This document shows, piece by piece, positions 11,933 to 63,858 of a DNA stretch of 64,000 nucleotides (position 1 is its first letter; each line of letters starts with the position of its first letter). The stretch spans positions 5,340 to 69,339 of the forward strand of contig CAZTGD010000006.1 of the NCBI GenBank assembly GCA_964613055.1, written 5' to 3'. This DNA is from an uncultured Caldisericales bacterium. Lineage in GTDB: Bacteria; Caldisericota; Caldisericia; JAAYUI01. Both the position numbers and the translations under genes were made by a program. A model generated the notes under the pieces. The model did no database searches. It saw nothing but the letters and a program-made list of their open reading frames with translations, and was not told the origin of the DNA.

Positions 11933-11983
11933 ACAATTGAATAATGTAATCAATATAATTCAAATAAGGATTACAGAACACCA

Positions 11984-12979
11984 ATGATTTCACTTGGTAT
12001 TGAAACCTCTTGCGATGATACAGCTGTTGGTATAGTCGATGGTGTAGATATCATTGCGCAGGTCAAATCATCACAGGACAGGGTACACGCCGAGTGGGGT
12101 GGCATCGTTCCTGAACTAGCATCTCGTGCTCATCTGGAAAACATAATCCCAATAATAGATGTTGCCATGAAGGATGCGGGTTTAACAAAGGATGGGATTG
12201 ATATCATCTCTTGTACCTATGGACCTGGATTGGTCGGCTCATTACTGGTTGGCATTGAGACAGCCAAAGCTTTGAGTTATATCTGGAACAAACCACTGGT
12301 CGGGGTTAACCATCTGCGTGGGCATGTCGCTTCAGCGATGCTTGCCAATCCTGAGATGGAACTACCATCGCTCGGATTACTCATCTCAGGCGGACACACT
12401 GAAATAATAATGTTCAATCCTGATTTCACACTCAAGCTCATATCGACAACGAGAGATGACTCTGTTGGTGAGAGTCTCGACAAGTTTGGAAGGGTGCTTG
12501 GTCTTTCATACCCAGCAGGACCTGAGCTGGACAGGATGTCTCTGATTGGTGATTCCTCAAAAGTAGAGTTACCCACGGTCAAACTCAAGGACAATAGTCT
12601 GGATTTCAGCTTCTCAGGTCTCAAAACAGCAGGTATCCGGGCAATACAGCGCTATCCAGAATTACCTAAAAGAGACCTTTCAGCCTCATTTATGAAAGCT
12701 ATTAGCAATCAATTGTTTGATAGATTGATGACAGCTACTGTTCGATACAAACCAGAATCCATTTTCTCTGTTGGTGGGGTTTCAGCAAGCAGGTATATTA
12801 GATCGCGTATAAAGAGTTTCTGTGAAACTATGAATCTTCCATTGCATGTACCACCAACAGAATTATGTACTGATAATGGTGCAATGATTGCGTATTGTGG
12901 TTTACTCTACTACCGATTCGGTATTAAATCAGGTCTTGGTCTTCAACCTATATCCAGACTCCCGCTTGATTCTGTCTGA
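11984..12979 (+). CDS. tsaD: tRNA N6-adenosine threonylcarbamoyltransferase TsaD
   Basis: GIETSCDDTAVGIV signature. Metal-binding H..H motif (VNHLRGH). 331 aa. Confidence 0.9.
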   Translation: MISLGIETSCDDTAVGIVDGVDIIAQVKSSQDRVHAEWGGIVPELASRAHLENIIPIIDVAMKDAGLTKDGIDIISCTYGPGLVGSLLVGIETAKALSYIWNKPLVGVNHLRGHVASAMLANPEMELPSLGLLISGGHTEIIMFNPDFTLKLISTTRDDSVGESLDKFGRVLGLSYPAGPELDRMSLIGDSSKVELPTVKLKDNSLDFSFSGLKTAGIRAIQRYPELPKRDLSASFMKAISNQLFDRLMTATVRYKPESIFSVGGVSASRYIRSRIKSFCETMNLPLHVPPTELCTDNGAMIAYCGLLYYRFGIKSGLGLQPISRLPLDSV

Positions 12980-55090: not shown

Positions 55091-55130
55091 AAAAAAACCG
55101 AAACCCCCCTGTGGCCTAGGAGGGGGGTTT
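55091..55130 (-). terminator. Rho-independent terminator for the 55190..56212 gene
   Basis: Minus strand reads AAACCCCCCTCCTAGGCCACAGGGGGGTTT followed by CGGTTTTTTT. Confidence 0.5.
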
Positions 55131-55189
55131 CAAGTAACGGAAACAAAGGAGAGTTGCTTGATTGCTTACGCAACTGCCTACATTACACC

Positions 55190-56212
55190 CTATTCAATCT
55201 TTTTGTTCCCAATATTCACTCTGATACGGTTGTAGATAAACAAGCCAAGGAGCACGAGCAGGAATATGACAGCCGATATGACTATCATCATAATGAGGAA
55301 ACCAATAAACCACACAGCACCATCCTGGATGTCATTCCAAAGACGATGAAGACCGCGTACAAATCTTGATGGCTCAGAGGTTGGCTCAATCTCAACATCT
55401 GGCTGGCTAATCGTCATGTGGATTCGGGACATCGATGTCATGGCTCTCAGATACTTCATCCTTCCCTCTATCTGATCGACTTCCTCTTGAACCTGCTGAA
55501 TCTGATAGTAGATATCAATAGAATCATCGACATCCTTTGCCTTGCTGTAGAACTTATTCAACTCAGCAATAAGCATTTTCTTTGAGGAGAGTCTGCTTTC
55601 CAGGTCCACATACTCCTCTGTAACATCATCTTCTGATTCGCTTCTATCAATCACATCACCAAGTTGATAAATGGTTTCAATTACTGAATCGAAGTGTTCA
55701 GTTGGAACTGAAAGTGTGCAGGTTATGGTCTGATACCTTTTATCTTCGTAATCAGAAACATTTTCATTGTAATCTGAAACCCTACCACCTACAGACATTG
55801 CCTTCTGTTTAGCACTGGAGTATATCTCATAGGGATTCTCTCCCTTGATACGGATATTCGCATCCTTCTTTATCATCCTGTTCCACTCACCAGCACTGAC
55901 AGAACCAATAGAGATAGGTGAACTTACATCACGGTGATAGCTGGAATCCGGCATTTCCGCCATGGCTAGGTCATCAACAGCACCCGCTGGACTTCCAGAG
56001 TTTGTAGTTGATTTTTGAGCTCTCTCCATATCGAATTCATCTTCAGTATCATAGGAATAGCTTTCACTTGGTGTCTCTTCATATCCCCAATCACCATCAT
56101 AATCGTAGCTGTCACCACCACTACCCAGACTCGTCATCACAACAACAGATGCTACAAACGCTATCACAACTCCAACAACGATCACCCACTTCATATTCTT
56201 GTTTACTTTCAT
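55190..56212 (-). CDS. DUF4349-like membrane protein (N-terminal anchor, coiled-coil middle, C-terminal TM pair)
   Basis: Topology and composition resemble DUF4349/anti-sigma-like proteins. Assignment from general architecture only. Confidence 0.35.
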   Translation of the reverse strand: MKVNKNMKWVIVVGVVIAFVASVVVMTSLGSGGDSYDYDGDWGYEETPSESYSYDTEDEFDMERAQKSTTNSGSPAGAVDDLAMAEMPDSSYHRDVSSPISIGSVSAGEWNRMIKKDANIRIKGENPYEIYSSAKQKAMSVGGRVSDYNENVSDYEDKRYQTITCTLSVPTEHFDSVIETIYQLGDVIDRSESEDDVTEEYVDLESRLSSKKMLIAELNKFYSKAKDVDDSIDIYYQIQQVQEEVDQIEGRMKYLRAMTSMSRIHMTISQPDVEIEPTSEPSRFVRGLHRLWNDIQDGAVWFIGFLIMMIVISAVIFLLVLLGLFIYNRIRVNIGNKKIE

Positions 56213-59894: not shown

Positions 59895-62800
59895 ATGTCT
59901 TCAGAGCTGAAGCAAGCATACAGTATCTATATCAAGCAGATTGAGCTTGACCACCGTAAAGGGAATGACACGGAGATAACCCACCGTGACGCCTTTTCCG
60001 CGTATGTCAAAGCTGTGCTAACCGATGGTTACACTGTCTCTCAGGAAACAAAACAAGAGGATGGCAACAAACCGGACTATGAAATAGAGAGCAAATCAAG
60101 AACAGTTGGATTCATCGAAACCAAGAAGATAGACTATCCCCTTGACAGGCTCGAAGGTGACGATCAACTGCAGAGATACTTTGAAGCGGTTGGCAATGTG
60201 ATAACCACAAACTACCTGGAGTTTAGATGGTATTCAAAGATTGAAAACACAGATGATTACGATGGCTCCAAACTGATACCAATCAGATCACTCAAGGTCG
60301 CCCACTGGGATGGTAAACGGATTGTAACCGATATAAAAGACCCACATCTGAAGCTGGCTGATTTCATTAGGGGGTTTACCTATGCAAAGGTGAGAACCGT
60401 CCGCAAGCCCGTTGAGCTTGCGCGGAGGATGTCATCGACAGCAAAGATGATTCGCGATTCAATGACGGAGGAATTGGCAGGAGAAACCAATGAAATTGAT
60501 CCGCTTTCATCTCAACTGGAATCTTTCAGGGAAACGATTATTGCTGACCTGTCTCCACAGTTGTTTGCGGACATGTACGCTGAAACCATAAGCTATGGTC
60601 TCTTTTCGGCAAAGAACGCCGTTGGCTCAAAAGAGATAACCTGGCAGGGAGCATCCCATTCCATTCCCGCAACCAATCCCTTCCTCAAGAGACTCTTCAA
60701 CGAACTCGTTCAGCAGTTGCCCCCTGCTGTTACCAGATACACGAATCTGCTTGTAAACCTGATGAACGCCATTGACCTGGAATCGGTTATGAAGGGGTTT
60801 GGCAAGGGTAGAGCGAAAGACCCCGTATTTCATTTCTACGAGACATTCCTTTCAGAATACAACCCTAGCCAGCGTGAGAGGCGCGGGGTGTACTACACCC
60901 CAAAACCAGTCGTGAGGTTCATTGTCCGCTCAGTCGACCATATCCTCAGAACCACCTTTGGTTTAAACGGAGGATTGGCAAACGCTGAAGAACAAGACGA
61001 TGGCGTCAAGAGACTCACCATCCTCGACCCAGCCACAGGCACTGGCACCTTTCTCCATGAGGTATTAAACCAGATATTTGAAGAGATTGGTGTCGCCCAG
61101 GCCGGTGGATTCGACAGGAATGACAAAGGGGTAAACGAGGATATCATCCCCAGGCTCTATGGTTTTGAGCTGATGATCGCTCCATACACCATAGCCCACC
61201 TGAAGCTGGGTATGTTGCTTGCAGAGAATGGCTACCAGGGCAGTCAGAGGCTGAATGTGTATCTGACCAACGCGCTGGAGGAGGCGCACAGGTTTGATGA
61301 TGACAGCACAAAAGGGCTCTTTGGATTCACAAAGACAATCATGGCGGAGTCAGAAGGCGCATCGAAAGCCAAGAGTGAACTGCCCGTGATGGTGGTGCTT
61401 GGCAATCCGCCATACTCCGGTCATTCCGCAAACGATATCGAGTGGATGGATGAGCTGATGAGAGGCAAGTGCTACACTGGCAACCCCAAAGAAAAGCTGT
61501 CACAAAGACCTCATGAAAAAACGCACAACTACTTTGAGGTGGACGGCAAGGGTCTTGGTGAGAGGAATCCCAAGTGGCTCAACGATGACTATGTCAAGTT
61601 CATCCGCTGGGGTCAGTGGCGCATAGAGCAGACGGGCGCTGGTGTGCTGGCGTTCATAACAAACCACGGCTATCTTGACAACCCAACCTTCCGAGGCATG
61701 AGGCAGTCACTGCTTGAAGCGTTTGACGAGATTTACATCACCGACCTGCACGGCAACGCCAAGAAGAAGGAGGTCACACCAAGTGGTGGCAAGGATGAGA
61801 ACGTGTTTGACATCCAGCAGGGCGTTGCCATAGGAATATTTGTGAAGCACCCCAAACCCCCCTGCCCTGCACAGGATAATAACCCCCTTTTCAAGGGGGT
61901 CGAATACGACAAAGTCGGATTCGGGGGGTTTAACAAACACTCAAAATACCTAAACAAATCCTTCACCAACGAGAGGATAAAGCAATACAACCTCATATCC
62001 AACGGCACACACCTGCCATACGCAGATGATCTAAAAGACAAAGCCAGAGAACTGAGAAAGAGCCAAACACCAGCAGAGAAGAAACTGTGGTATGAATACC
62101 TAAGCAGACTCGACCTTCGCTTCAAGCGTCAGCACCCGATAGACAACTACATAGTAGACTTTTACTGCACGAAACTCGGTTTGGTGATTGAGATTGATGG
62201 TTCATTGCACAACGAAGACCTACAGCATGATAAAGACAAAAAGCGTACTGCGATACTGGAGAAATATGGTCTGACCGTGATTCGTTTTTCCAACGATCAG
62301 GTTTTAAAGGAGTTTAAGGGTGTCTGTCAGGTTGTAGATTCGTATATAAGCAAAGATAAACCCCCCTACCCTGCTGTGCAGGGCATCCCCCCTCGAAGAG
62401 GGGGGTGTAAGTATGCTACGGTGTATCATCATGACCTGTGGGGGGTGCGTGAGATACGGGTCAATTCAAAAAAAGAGAACGATAAAACAGAGCTGGTGGG
62501 TGGCAAGTATCACTGGCTGGATACACACAGTGTGGGTGAAGGTGTCGACTGGAAGGTGCTGAACCCGCAACAACCCTTCTATCTGTTCAGCCCCTTTGAC
62601 AACGAGCTTGCCCATGAGTATGAGTGTGGCGTGAAGATTACCGATCTGTTTCCCACCAACTCGGTTGGGATAGTGACAGCAAGGGATAAGTTCGTTATTG
62701 ATTTCGAAAGAAACAATCTGGTTCAGAGATTAAATGAGTTCTGCTCAAAAGAGATATCCGATGATACAGCAAAAAGGAATTTTCTATCGAATCGAGACAA

Positions 62801-63533
62801 ACTAGATGTTTCTAAAGCCCGAAACGAGGTTAGAAAAGTAAATATTGAAAATTATGTTGATGACATCTTATACCGACCTTTTGACACGAGACCAATCATT
62901 TATTTGCCAGCTTTGATTGAGAGAAGCAGGGATGATGTCATGAAACACATGCTGGCGGGGGATAATGTTGGTTTGATAACCACAAGACAAGTTGCTGTAA
63001 GTATTTTCAATCATTCACTTATCACCAATAGCATTATTGACAATCGTCTAACAAGAAGCAATAAAGGCATCTGTTACCTTTTCCCGCTGTACTTGTATCC
63101 ACACGGCGACTCACTGGATGTTAAGTCAACCTCCTGGCGGGAGGGTGAAAACGGACGCATACCAAACCTGAACAGGAAGCTGATTGAGGGCATCGCTAAA
63201 CGTTTGGGTGTGATTTTTATTTCGGAGGGCAAGGGCAACATCATTCAAACCCCCCTGCCCTGCACAGCAGGGCGTCCCCCCTCGAAGAGGGGGGGCAAAG
63301 GACCCCCTTTTGAAGGGGGTCGAATCCGCTTCTGGCGGATTCGGGGGGTTGACAATCGGTCCAGAGGACATCCTCAGCTACATCTACGTCATCCTCCACA
63401 GCCCAACCTACCGCACCCGTTACGCACCATTCCTGAAGATGGACTTCCCCCGTGTGCCCTTCACCTCCAACCTGGAGCTGTTTGCCAAACTCTCAGCCAT
63501 CGGCTCAAGACTTATCAGCCTGCATCTGCTTGA
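59895..63533 (+). CDS. Type IIG (MmeI-like) RM enzyme as it reads in this sequence; authentic to ~63295, then out of frame
   Basis: PD-(D/E)xK (PDYEIE...GFIETKK, aa 60-78). MTase motif I ILDPATGTGTF. YYTPKPVV. NPPY at 61404-61415. Family-typical ...DENVFDIQQGVAIGIFVK and ...VYHHDLWGVREIR.... After the G7 tract at 63289-63295 the frame gives low-complexity P/Q/L-rich sequence. Confidence 0.7.
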   Translation: MSSELKQAYSIYIKQIELDHRKGNDTEITHRDAFSAYVKAVLTDGYTVSQETKQEDGNKPDYEIESKSRTVGFIETKKIDYPLDRLEGDDQLQRYFEAVGNVITTNYLEFRWYSKIENTDDYDGSKLIPIRSLKVAHWDGKRIVTDIKDPHLKLADFIRGFTYAKVRTVRKPVELARRMSSTAKMIRDSMTEELAGETNEIDPLSSQLESFRETIIADLSPQLFADMYAETISYGLFSAKNAVGSKEITWQGASHSIPATNPFLKRLFNELVQQLPPAVTRYTNLLVNLMNAIDLESVMKGFGKGRAKDPVFHFYETFLSEYNPSQRERRGVYYTPKPVVRFIVRSVDHILRTTFGLNGGLANAEEQDDGVKRLTILDPATGTGTFLHEVLNQIFEEIGVAQAGGFDRNDKGVNEDIIPRLYGFELMIAPYTIAHLKLGMLLAENGYQGSQRLNVYLTNALEEAHRFDDDSTKGLFGFTKTIMAESEGASKAKSELPVMVVLGNPPYSGHSANDIEWMDELMRGKCYTGNPKEKLSQRPHEKTHNYFEVDGKGLGERNPKWLNDDYVKFIRWGQWRIEQTGAGVLAFITNHGYLDNPTFRGMRQSLLEAFDEIYITDLHGNAKKKEVTPSGGKDENVFDIQQGVAIGIFVKHPKPPCPAQDNNPLFKGVEYDKVGFGGFNKHSKYLNKSFTNERIKQYNLISNGTHLPYADDLKDKARELRKSQTPAEKKLWYEYLSRLDLRFKRQHPIDNYIVDFYCTKLGLVIEIDGSLHNEDLQHDKDKKRTAILEKYGLTVIRFSNDQVLKEFKGVCQVVDSYISKDKPPYPAVQGIPPRRGGCKYATVYHHDLWGVREIRVNSKKENDKTELVGGKYHWLDTHSVGEGVDWKVLNPQQPFYLFSPFDNELAHEYECGVKITDLFPTNSVGIVTARDKFVIDFERNNLVQRLNEFCSKEISDDTAKRNFLSNRDKLDVSKARNEVRKVNIENYVDDILYRPFDTRPIIYLPALIERSRDDVMKHMLAGDNVGLITTRQVAVSIFNHSLITNSIIDNRLTRSNKGICYLFPLYLYPHGDSLDVKSTSWREGENGRIPNLNRKLIEGIAKRLGVIFISEGKGNIIQTPLPCTAGRPPSKRGGKGPPFEGGRIRFWRIRGVDNRSRGHPQLHLRHPPQPNLPHPLRTIPEDGLPPCALHLQPGAVCQTLSHRLKTYQPASA
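61854..61930 (+). repeat. GC-rich modular hairpin repeat, copy A, translated in frame
   Basis: AAACCCCCC-TGCCCTGCACAGG-ATAATAA-CCCCCTTTTCAAGGGGGT-CGAATACGACAAAGTCGGATTC-GGGGGGTT. About 65% GC in a ~43% GC gene. Confidence 0.7.
61932..62354 (+). other. Embedded DUF559-like (Vsr/PD-(D/E)xK-fold) endonuclease domain, in frame within the RM gene
   Basis: LRKSQTPAEKKLWYEYLSRLDLRFKRQHPIDNYIVDFYCTKLGLVIEIDGSLH...KDKKRTAILEKYGLTVIRFSNDQVL matches the DUF559 domain consensus. No ATG or stop of its own. Confidence 0.65.
62358..62405 (+). repeat. GC-rich modular hairpin repeat, copy B (5' modules only)
   Basis: AAACCCCCC-TACCCTGCTGTGCAGGGCAT-CCCCCCTCGAAGAGGGGGG. C6/G6 symmetric hairpin. Confidence 0.7.
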
Positions 63534-63858
63534 GGACGACGTGCTGAAATCCGACAGATCGGTCAGCTTCACAGGAGACGGCGACCACGTGGTGGGCAGA
63601 ATCAGACATGAAAACAACCGCGTCTACATCAACAAAGACGAATACTTTGAGGGTGTGCCGGCGGACGTCTACAGATTCATGGTCGGCGGGTACCAGGTCG
63701 CAAACAAATGGCTGAAGGACAGAAAGAAAAGGGAGCTTGTAAGGGAGGAGAGGACTCGATACTGCAGGATAATCACCTCGCTTAAAATGACCTTAAAGGC
63801 GATGGATGATATCGATGAGATTATTGATTCCGCAGGCGGATTCCCTCTTAAAACCTGA
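63187..63858 (+). CDS. C-terminal module of the same RM enzyme, in the +1 frame (ORF track 63310..63858)
   Basis: Open frame from 63187. Contains LSYIYVILHSPTYRTRYAPFLKMDFPRVPF and MVGGYQVANKWLKDRKKRELV, conserved at C-termini of type IIG/ISP-like enzymes. Deleting one G of the G7 tract joins it to the 59895 ORF. Confidence 0.65.
63247..63350 (+). repeat. GC-rich modular hairpin repeat, copy C (full set of four hairpins); contains the C6/G7 asymmetric tract where the frame breaks
   Basis: AAACCCCCC-TGCCCTGCACAGCAGGGCG-TCCCCCCTCGAAGAGGGGGGG-CAAAGGACCCCCTTTTGAAGGGGGT-CGAATCCGCTTCTGGCGGATTC-GGGGGGTT. Confidence 0.7.

Follow-up and report, generated by a model that had tools for sequence, protein, structure and literature searches.

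Rickettsia palindromic elements (RPEs) are short palindromic repeats that lie inside open reading frames (ORFs), in frame, where the protein tolerates the extra peptide (PMC3733652, PMC10969869). Repeats of the repetitive extragenic palindrome (REP)/RAYT system have also been reported within genes and at the same site in orthologues (PMC3733652). I-Bth0305I is a Vsr-like homing endonuclease of the EDxHD type (PMC3239194). The motif whalefall-1 (RF01762) is known from one metagenome only and is rated as a likely RNA of unknown function. Here we describe a locus in a 64-kb stretch of contig CAZTGD010000006.1 from an uncultured Caldisericales bacterium (hereafter the window), in which a gene for a restriction-modification enzyme carries a composite insertion: a cassette that encodes a DUF559 nuclease domain and has two-hairpin ends, and, further downstream, a solo pair of the same hairpin units. 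We consider it probable that these units are the ends of a DUF559 selfish cassette, which is tolerated within the host gene when it is translated.

As in RPEs, palindromic units are read in frame at this locus: elements A and B in the window, and element C in the related proteins or loci P0121, P0361, P0362, P0123 and L110. Unlike RPEs, which share no sequence relationship with them, the units lack a CGTC tag, consist of a two-hairpin module of 45-50 nt that is tied to DUF559, and do not occur in Rickettsia. A first-pass annotation of the window, made from its letters alone, had likened the elements to RPEs and MITEs (miniature transposable elements with inverted repeats); dispersal of the RPE kind into many unrelated ORFs was not found in the window, a JGI metagenome scan, viral contigs or 1.84 billion protein representatives, and the sequences resemble neither RPEs nor REPs (no GTAG or CGTC tag) nor any Rfam family above threshold. 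We know of no protein associated with RPEs. The REP/RAYT system provides a closer parallel in layout, with a single-copy nuclease gene bracketed by inverted hairpin repeats and tens of solo or paired copies per genome; here, loci L010, L077 and L127 carry inverted units, and dozens of solo or paired units occur in the same families of metagenome-assembled genomes (MAGs). The nuclease, however, is a Vsr-like PD-(D/E)XK enzyme rather than an HUH/Y1 transposase, the units do not end in GTAG, and each unit comprises two hairpins and a G6TT tail, with a core common to several phyla.

Likeness to MITEs lies in the terminal inverted repeats AAACCCCCC/GGGGGGTTT, in the non-coding solo forms and in a layout like that of an internal deletion from a gene-carrying parent; termini of this type, AAACCCCCC/GGGGGGTT(T), are present in elements A and C. 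In contrast to MITEs, the units showed no target-site duplication and have no parent with a DDE transposase; the 'parent' carries only a nuclease of roughly 120 aa. With Vsr-like homing endonucleases the DUF559 domain shares a related fold and catalytic residues (3R3P, E 0.006), insertion beside conserved host motifs and presence/absence polymorphism, but no intron (Rfam) or intein (Pfam) surrounds it, the insert is simply translated and fused in frame, and DUF559 proteins have no NUMOD DNA-binding region. Searches of Rfam and the literature returned no description of the unit or of an association between DUF559 and repeats.

A restriction-modification gene is interrupted at two sites

The host gene encodes an N-terminal PD..ExK motif, an N6_Mtase domain (E 1.9e-10) and a Type_ISP_C specificity domain (Pfam). 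Its homologues number in the thousands and are about 1080 aa long; the N-terminal motif is conserved among them as PD...IE[TA]K. Comparison with a sister allele (dN/dS 0.11) shows purifying selection on the gene, as judged from substitutions. The features of the locus are given below, where Y denotes the 45-50-nt unit, made of hairpin 1 (H1), a C, hairpin 2 (H2) and the tail GGGGGGTT, and Y' denotes its reverse complement.

59895-63858, + strand: host gene, single-chain Type IIG / Type ISP-like restriction-modification enzyme, interrupted at two sites
61854-61930, + strand: element A, truncated reverse unit Y' followed by forward unit Y; left boundary of the DUF559 cassette
61931-62357, + strand: full-length DUF559 / Vsr-like PD-(D/E)XK endonuclease domain in the host frame (PF04480, E 7e-33; NF007294)
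62358-62405, + strand: element B, a single reverse unit (Y') that bounds the DUF559 cassette on its right
63247-63350, + strand: element C, solo inverted pair Y'+Y, splitting Type_ISP_C between model positions 180 and 186
63289-63295, + strand: run of seven G (G7) in the 3' arm of H1' of element C, where element B and the sister alleles have one G fewer
63351-63858, + strand: displaced C-terminal 169 codons of the host enzyme, the second half of Type_ISP_C (positions 186-340, E 6e-44), in a phase that differs from the upstream ORF

The cassette sits at the boundary of the methyltransferase and specificity domains (site 1), and the solo pair in a loop of the specificity domain (site 2), with Type_ISP_C model positions 1-180 before element C and 186-340 after it (Pfam). 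Judged from their structure, A and B form the two ends of one cassette and C pairs two inverted copies of that end-unit; these are not three independent small elements.

Elements A, B and C are built from one two-hairpin unit

The first-pass annotation described three related elements at these coordinates with a shared start, AAACCCCCC, and this was borne out. Its common end applies to A and C, which finish in GGGGGGTT, but not to B, which finishes in GGGGGGTG. By sequence, all modules of the three elements reduce to the single unit, used in both orientations: Y reads H1 (ACCCCCT-loop-AGGGGGT), C, H2 (here a 21-nt hairpin) and GGGGGGTT, and Y' reads AACCCCCC-H2'-H1'. Site 1 is composed of [Y'-remnant, Y]-DUF559-[Y']. 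In element A, the Y' remnant consists of AAACCCCCC and half a hairpin (61854-61875), and is followed by a unit Y with H1 at 61882-61900 (ACCCCCTTTTCAAGGGGGT), H2 at 61902-61922 (GAATACGAC-AAA-GTCGGATTC) and the tail at 61923-61930; its translation is KPPCPAQDNNPLFKGVEYDKVGFGG. Element B comprises AAACCCCCC (62358-62366), H2' (CCCTGC-TGT-GCAGGG, 62369-62383) and H1' (CCCCCCTC-GAA-GAGGGGGG, 62387-62405), is translated as KPPYPAVQGIPPRRGG, and has the layout of the right-hand inverted repeat of free-standing DUF559 elements. In element C, Y' (63247-63295) carries AAACCCCCC, H2' (63258-63272) and H1' (63276-63295); a CAAAGG spacer leads to Y (63302-63350), with H1 at 63302-63320, H2 at 63322-63342 and GGGGGGTT at 63343-63350.

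The four hairpin modules are as the annotation described them, and the elements fold far better than shuffled sequences as RNA and as DNA. Element C folds into a cloverleaf with a closing stem AACCCCCC/GGGGGGTT and four hairpins (RNA -80.9 kcal/mol, z -7.7; DNA -43.2 kcal/mol, z -7.1), and elements A (z about -4) and B (z about -3 to -4) also exceed their shuffles. A GC content of about 65% had been given for the family; B (69%) and C (66%) agree with this figure but A (55%) does not. The host gene has 47.6% GC and the 64-kb window 42.6%.

Searches of the window with each module motif gave 3-4 matches, compared with 0.01-0.09 expected from shuffles, and found no copies beyond A, B and C. A generic search for C5+...G5+ hairpins added only a terminator at 55104 and one weak site. 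This terminator (55100-55131; GAAACCCCCC-12 nt-GGGGGGTTTC, then a T7 run on the minus strand) lies ~60 nt past the stop of a 340-aa gene at 55190..56212(-); from its sequence it is an intrinsic terminator whose stem is identical to the termini of elements A and C.

Within the host clade, H1 and the tail are invariant, and H2 varies in sequence with its pairing kept. Seven of nine H2 pairs have changed on both sides and 95.8% of cells remain paired, a value equalled by 0 of 500 shuffles, and slid controls collapse. In a set of 65 distinct H2 sequences, 5.9 of 8 positions are paired, versus 4.25 when partners are swapped. The orthologous site-2 units of L007 and L134 are three double compensatory changes apart.

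A complete DUF559 domain lies between elements A and B

The first-pass annotation overlooked both the frame break in element C and the full DUF559 domain that occupies the 427 nt from A to B. This interval contains no stop codon and has no ATG of its own near the DUF559 N-terminus; together with A and B it makes 552 nt, or 184 codons. DUF559 genes are among the commonest small 'endonuclease domain-containing' genes of bacteria, and to our knowledge no role has been assigned to them. The domain has 459 free-standing homologues, the best at 58% identity. Its catalytic-type residues (D of VDFYC, E.DG, H, and D of DKDKK) are conserved in L006 and L007 and align with D196, N208, H213 and D222 of I-Bth0305I. 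Among structures in the PDB it matches 3HRL (E 2e-14) and, weakly, 3R3P, the I-Bth0305I catalytic domain (phmmer, E 0.006). A homing-type activity of the domain is plausible on these grounds. An AlphaFold model of the residues encoded by 61410-63245, of low confidence (pLDDT 57), suggests disorder of the modules (pLDDT <50 for residues 151-209 and 315-348) and an alpha/beta secondary structure for DUF559. We ruled out an intein or intron for the A-to-B segment, which has no Hint domain (Pfam) and no intron model (Rfam).

Inserts recur at two sites in homologues and paralogues

We compared the host protein with the best 120 of its thousands of homologues. About 116 of these 120 lack both inserts, are roughly 1080 aa long and align straight across both sites, which agrees with the proposal that palindromic, modular elements have been inserted; the segments are not ordinary stretches of conserved coding sequence. 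On this comparison, A, B and C are insertions. Site 1 lies between FVKHP and CKYATV (FVKR..GKKKLATV in insert-free homologues) and site 2 between KGNIIQ and TIGPED (KGDLKKTFGPED in insert-free homologues). Among the 120, inserts occur only in the four closest lineages, always at the same two sites and with differing modules:

P0121 and P0361 (P0121 98% identical to the host; P0361 in the same 90%-identity cluster): same modules, with an extra module of 17 aa (P0121) or 14 aa (P0361) in element C, in frame
L007 (P0234; 63% identical to the host): DUF559 at site 1, with a frameshift within the left module
P0123 (L006; 58% identical to the host): DUF559 present, Pro/Gly modules at both sites different, everything in frame

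P0121, P0123, P0361, P0362 and L110 read through, the extra 51-nt and 42-nt modules included; the 51-nt module of the sister allele is bounded by the 11-nt near-repeat AAAGGACCCCC / AAAAGACCCCC. DUF559 identity tracks that of the host (69.5% between the window and L007, 52% between the window and L006) and the catalytic-type residues are kept; the cassette is thus old and vertically inherited in this clade. In L134, which is 89% identical to L007 at the nucleotide level and has the same neighbouring genes, the left site-1 unit is kept, and DUF559 and the right unit are gone. Short homology at the L134 junction suggests a deletion. Loss of a cassette can thus leave a solo unit behind as a scar, and element C at site 2 may have arisen in this way. 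The conserved host site exists in both occupied and empty alleles, in a phylogenetic pattern that fits loss rather than gain.

Units are also found in L107 and L110, other Type_ISP_C genes of the L007 genome, which share 70% identity with each other and 27-32% with the host. Both carry a unit pair at exactly the position homologous to site 2, 3-4 codons before DIF.YIY..LH.P.YR, as element C lies 3-4 codons upstream of the conserved GPEDI..YIY..LH.P.YR motif; 94 of 120 homologues of L107/L110 have no insert. Since H1 and the tail are conserved while the flanking proteins are only 27-32% identical, the units either arrived separately or are actively maintained. Gene conversion between the paralogues was judged an unlikely source of the same-site inserts at this level of protein identity. 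Both sites adjoin highly conserved motifs, NVFDIQQGVAIGIFVK and GPEDI..YIY, and insertion beside such motifs is typical of homing targets.

Site 1 is also interrupted in cyanobacteria. In L135 (4640-5010, Nodularia) and L136 (3740-5010), the gene is split as ...NIFIKKRV* / MIKAKIYYARM..., and the gap holds HicB-like, ParD/ParE and DUF4926 ORFs, with no GC hairpins. By its sequence context, the methylase/specificity-domain boundary is a general insertion hotspot.

These comparisons bear on the reading in which lineage-specific low-complexity linkers arose in place and were joined by a domain fusion, with no mobile element and only incidental palindromy. The co-divergence of DUF559 with its host and the predicted disorder of the modules (in a low-confidence model) would suit it, but it does not account for hairpins at the nucleotide level (z about -7) with compensatory changes, for the same unit in intergenic DNA and unrelated phyla, for identical H1 and GGGGGGTT tail between the window and the L007/L134 lineage though the host proteins are only about 63% identical, or for a unit kept in paralogues at 27-32% identity. 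As far as sequence comparison goes, it is contradicted by the pattern scan described below, the units that flank DUF559, the H2 covariation and the paralogue positions, and we regard it as extremely improbable.

An extra G breaks the reading frame in element C

Because of the G7 run at 63289-63295, the host frame passes from phase 0 to phase 1 across element C and the enzyme is truncated: the ORF as found spans 59895-63533, and the native C-terminus runs on in the +1 phase to 63858. The first-pass annotation held that all three elements were inserted in frame and translated as Pro/Gly-rich linkers. This is correct for A and B here and, as in RPEs, for most alleles, but in this strain element C breaks the frame, and the peptide quoted for it (GGKGPPFEGG...) comes from its shifted, non-native frame. 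The sister allele, which is 98% identical, reads through as 1338 aa, and P0121 reads PPSKRGAKDP uninterrupted across the site. G7 occurs in the window and in L001-L003, and G6 in L004, L005, L128 and L129, which carry the sister allele. Sequencing error was ruled out as the cause, with G7 present in three independent Illumina assemblies. G7 in three assemblies and G6 in four of the sister allele therefore reflect a real strain difference, reproducible over 8 assemblies; tract length is uniform within each allele type, as far as consensus assemblies report it.

The host orthologue in L007 is frameshifted inside the left site-1 module (11945-12040), giving ORFs of 667 and 709 aa; a 90%-cluster mate of its protein is labelled Caldisericia. 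This frame break, in a module rich in C/G tracts, is a second, independent one. The alleles also differ in the specificity domain: window positions 62708-63078 have no nucleotide similarity to L128, L129 and L004, alleles that are otherwise 92-96% identical, and P0361 has a third variant of the stretch. These differences look like an exchange of target-recognition cassettes between strains.

Restriction-modification genes are classic phase-variable loci. Such a contingency locus would benefit the host, the C6/G6-7 tracts being kept for on/off switching by slipped-strand mispairing. In its favour, a G7/G6 polymorphism that toggles the frame between strains falls exactly at a homopolymer, a second frameshift arose independently in L007, and swapping of specificity domains among alleles marks the locus as evolutionarily active. 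Tracts of 6-7, however, are short for high-rate switching and here lie inside an inserted palindrome, in contrast to known phase-variable tracts; G7 in 3 of 3 assemblies of this strain and G6 in 4 of 4 of the sister allele show no mixture within a population (in consensus assemblies). Phase variation would also leave the H2 covariation, the DUF559 association and the intergenic copies unexplained, and we consider it very improbable as the main account of the locus.

The unit accompanies DUF559 genes in several phyla

We scanned one genome per species for ACCCCYT-N3-7-AGGGGGTC-N17-25-GGGGGGTT and recovered at least 119 loci; the pattern had no match in 2.9 million viral contigs. In GC-rich MAGs, stop-to-stop ORFs run through start codons, so that a stop-to-stop test does not tell apart the copies that lie within ORFs. 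Among the matches listed are Burkholderiales MAGs (H2 17-19 nt long and with tandem G.A; numerous copies between genes in each genome), Leptolyngbya, Patescibacteria, in which units come after gene ends and are followed by T-runs, and also Gracilibacteria, Absconditabacterales, Ignavibacteriales and others. Related units are found between genes and in other genes of a related genome; none further occur in the window. Within the window lineage, units were found only in Type_ISP_C-type restriction genes and at one intergenic site. A search of translated element C against the 1.84 billion protein representatives gave three hits, all unrelated repeat proteins.

Within the matches listed, a DUF559 ORF, detected with a hidden Markov model built from free-standing DUF559 proteins, lies directly beside a unit in 7 of the 119 loci, in several phyla. 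In L010, L077 and L127 the ORF is enclosed by exact inverted units in an element of about 500 bp with a promoter-like spacer. Beside DUF559 in L105 (Gracilibacteria), L011, L046 and L108, one of the two partner units is degenerate. Each of the three exact inverted pairs at a spacing of 400-500 nt surrounds a DUF559 ORF. We also fetched four loci of free-standing DUF559 genes (from Spirochaetota, Alkalinema, one further genome and Patescibacteria), and all four are flanked on either side by C5-6/G5-6 hairpins, which in many cases are direct repeats. Of the 120 closest free-standing DUF559 proteins, 26 run into PP.PP/KGG tails, which are translated Y'-like units. In the Burkholderiales-type family, 37 of 83 units listed have an inverted partner within 40 nt in a MITE-like arrangement, a layout that fits what would be expected after deletion of the gene from a cassette.

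Could the units instead be independent MITE-, REP- or RPE-like palindromes, moved in trans by some transposase or by replication slippage, with DUF559 an unrelated selfish or defence gene that settles in the same permissive spots? Most units in the high-copy genomes are solo or MITE-like and have no DUF559, site 1 takes unrelated cargo in cyanobacteria, the orientation of units around DUF559 is variable, and the 11-nt near-repeat around the 51-nt sister module fits slippage. Set against this are the 7 of 119 listed loci and 4 of 4 fetched loci in which DUF559 adjoins units, where chance adjacency would yield fewer than 0.1 loci (a rough estimate that assumes a few DUF559 genes per genome), and the enclosure of a DUF559 ORF by every exact inverted pair at 400-500 nt; in addition, no transposase gene lies beside any unit in the loci inspected. 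We hold independent repeats to be unlikely.

A second alternative is that the hairpins act mainly as RNA of the whalefall-1 kind, which would terminate, insulate, process or stabilise the DUF559 transcript or, in solo copies, serve neighbouring genes in these ways, with the DNA repeats a by-product. With permissive thresholds, an Rfam search of the region and eight related loci found no intron, ribozyme or riboswitch, and whalefall-1 only below threshold and in the region only. That match, the best in Rfam to unit Y (63300-63353; 28.3 bits, E 8.5e-5), shares the layout of two adjacent hairpins followed by a purine-rich tail similar to the 3' arm of hairpin 1, but falls short of the gathering threshold of 37, differs in its core (CUCUCC/GGAGAG) and is not repeated in the related loci. 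A role in RNA would be in keeping with G-T intermediates in the H2 stems of the Burkholderiales family, with the T-runs after the Patescibacteria copies and with the window terminator at 55100-55131, which has the same AAACCCCCC/GGGGGGTTT stem. Units nevertheless occur in both orientations relative to DUF559 and the flanking genes, the in-gene copies have no T-runs, and on the coding strand none is classed as terminator-like, and a strong terminator or cleavage site would be harmful within a gene under purifying selection (dN/dS 0.11). An RNA function as the main explanation is, in our view, improbable.

The Burkholderiales/Betaproteobacteria MAG loci (within L009-L127) carry a high-copy intergenic repeat, ACCCCCTGAYAAGGGGGTC-GYGAGCCGMAGGCGARC-GGGGGGTT, in which the tandem G.A of H2 is conserved and H2 covaries (C-G/T-A/T-G). 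Its copies are often joined tail-to-tail in a MITE-like form of roughly 105 nt, and several come to within some 15 nt of a start codon on the opposite strand. In L127 (2030-2650) the DUF559 element follows the end of an AMP-ligase-like gene (..KNNYGKVLKTELRKLL); L024 (~860) and L080 (~4010) have only a solo unit after what seems the same kind of gene end, which may represent an occupied/solo polymorphism. Leptolyngbya SOY_34 has at least 10 loci (L022, L033, L037, L048, L086, L098, L100, L106, L111 and L122) with a variant in which H2 is 25 nt long and a GGGGGGCAAACGCCCCCC hairpin follows; by sequence, this is a separate high-copy subfamily in a cyanobacterium.

A probable selfish cassette tolerated by its host gene

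We favour the reading in which the units are the ends of a selfish DUF559 cassette. Under this model, the cassette would have entered beside two conserved coding motifs by a homing-like insertion driven by the endonuclease, or else would have inserted and survived only at permissive sites. Once there, it is tolerated, as the comparison of alleles shows: the units are GC-rich, nearly free of stop codons and of frame-preserving length, and are read as Pro/Gly-rich linkers with DUF559 as an internal domain, in a host gene that has stayed under purifying selection. It has persisted by vertical inheritance through a clade whose proteins are 58-100% identical, with the DUF559 catalytic motif kept. 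Turnover consists of the gain and loss of hairpin modules, compensatory substitutions in H2 and deletion of DUF559 to leave a solo unit, as the alleles compared show. Finally, the frameshift-prone C6/G6 tracts may act as an off-switch; their polymorphism is seen in the G7 strain, whose enzyme is truncated. DUF559 would either mobilise or maintain the units.

Several observations weigh against this model. No transposition or homing event was directly seen in the loci compared, and no target-site duplication flanks A+B, C or the free-standing elements. Every copy found in the window's own lineage sits in this one gene, and a scan of JGI metagenomes for the TTTT-loop subfamily returned the same gene only. 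DUF559 has co-diverged with its host and has no start of its own, and so behaves like a fixed domain rather than an active mobile gene in this clade; its dN/dS between the two closest alleles is 0.51, from 9 substitutions only. Unit orientation around DUF559 varies, being inverted in Burkholderiales and direct in L007 and the cyanobacterial loci, and element C is a tail-out pair, whereas the common MITE-like form of Burkholderiales is tail-in. In cyanobacteria, small unrelated ORFs with no hairpin units split Type ISP genes at exactly site 1, and a permissive domain boundary may explain the recurrence at site 1 as well as targeting does. Compensatory changes in palindromes can come from template-switch mutation or gene conversion between copies, with no selection. 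The scan fixed H1 and the tail, and their 'invariance' across phyla is partly by construction.

A broader proposal, which we put forward tentatively as a minority view, is that DUF559 nucleases and the two-hairpin/G6TT unit constitute a previously unrecognised class of selfish elements that spans phyla, a nuclease-based counterpart of REP/RAYT that spawns solo units, lives in genes with neither intron nor intein and prefers conserved sites in restriction-modification genes. If this is true, DUF559 gains a role that can be tested, that of the nuclease in a selfish element of REP-like or homing-like type, and the origin of some high-copy intergenic palindromes, and possibly that of orphan RNA motifs such as whalefall-1, would be explained. 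Besides introns and inteins, the locus shows a third way for a nuclease gene to reside inside a host gene, by means of ends that are stop-free, preserve the frame and code for linkers. For restriction-modification biology, it shows how such inserts provide a Type IIG enzyme with a second nuclease domain and with tracts prone to frameshifts; one extra G switches off this strain's copy.

Other inserts and repeats near DUF559 and the units

In L130 (4756-5145, Spirochaetota), the DUF559 ORF is fused to an unrelated N-terminal part of 140 aa. Behind it come four or more tandem repeats with a period, estimated by eye, of roughly 115 nt, each with CCCCCC..GGGGGG hairpins. An intergenic region of L083 (6330-6620) holds a solo unit together with three copies of another palindromic family (GTCATTCC..GGAATCCAGGGG type). 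In L133, a Patescibacteria MAG locus, a small 23S_rRNA_IVP (four-helix-bundle) ORF at 753-1103 lies between histidine kinase and response regulator genes; this other small gene type, often seen as an insert, is 1.4 kb from a hairpin-flanked DUF559 gene.

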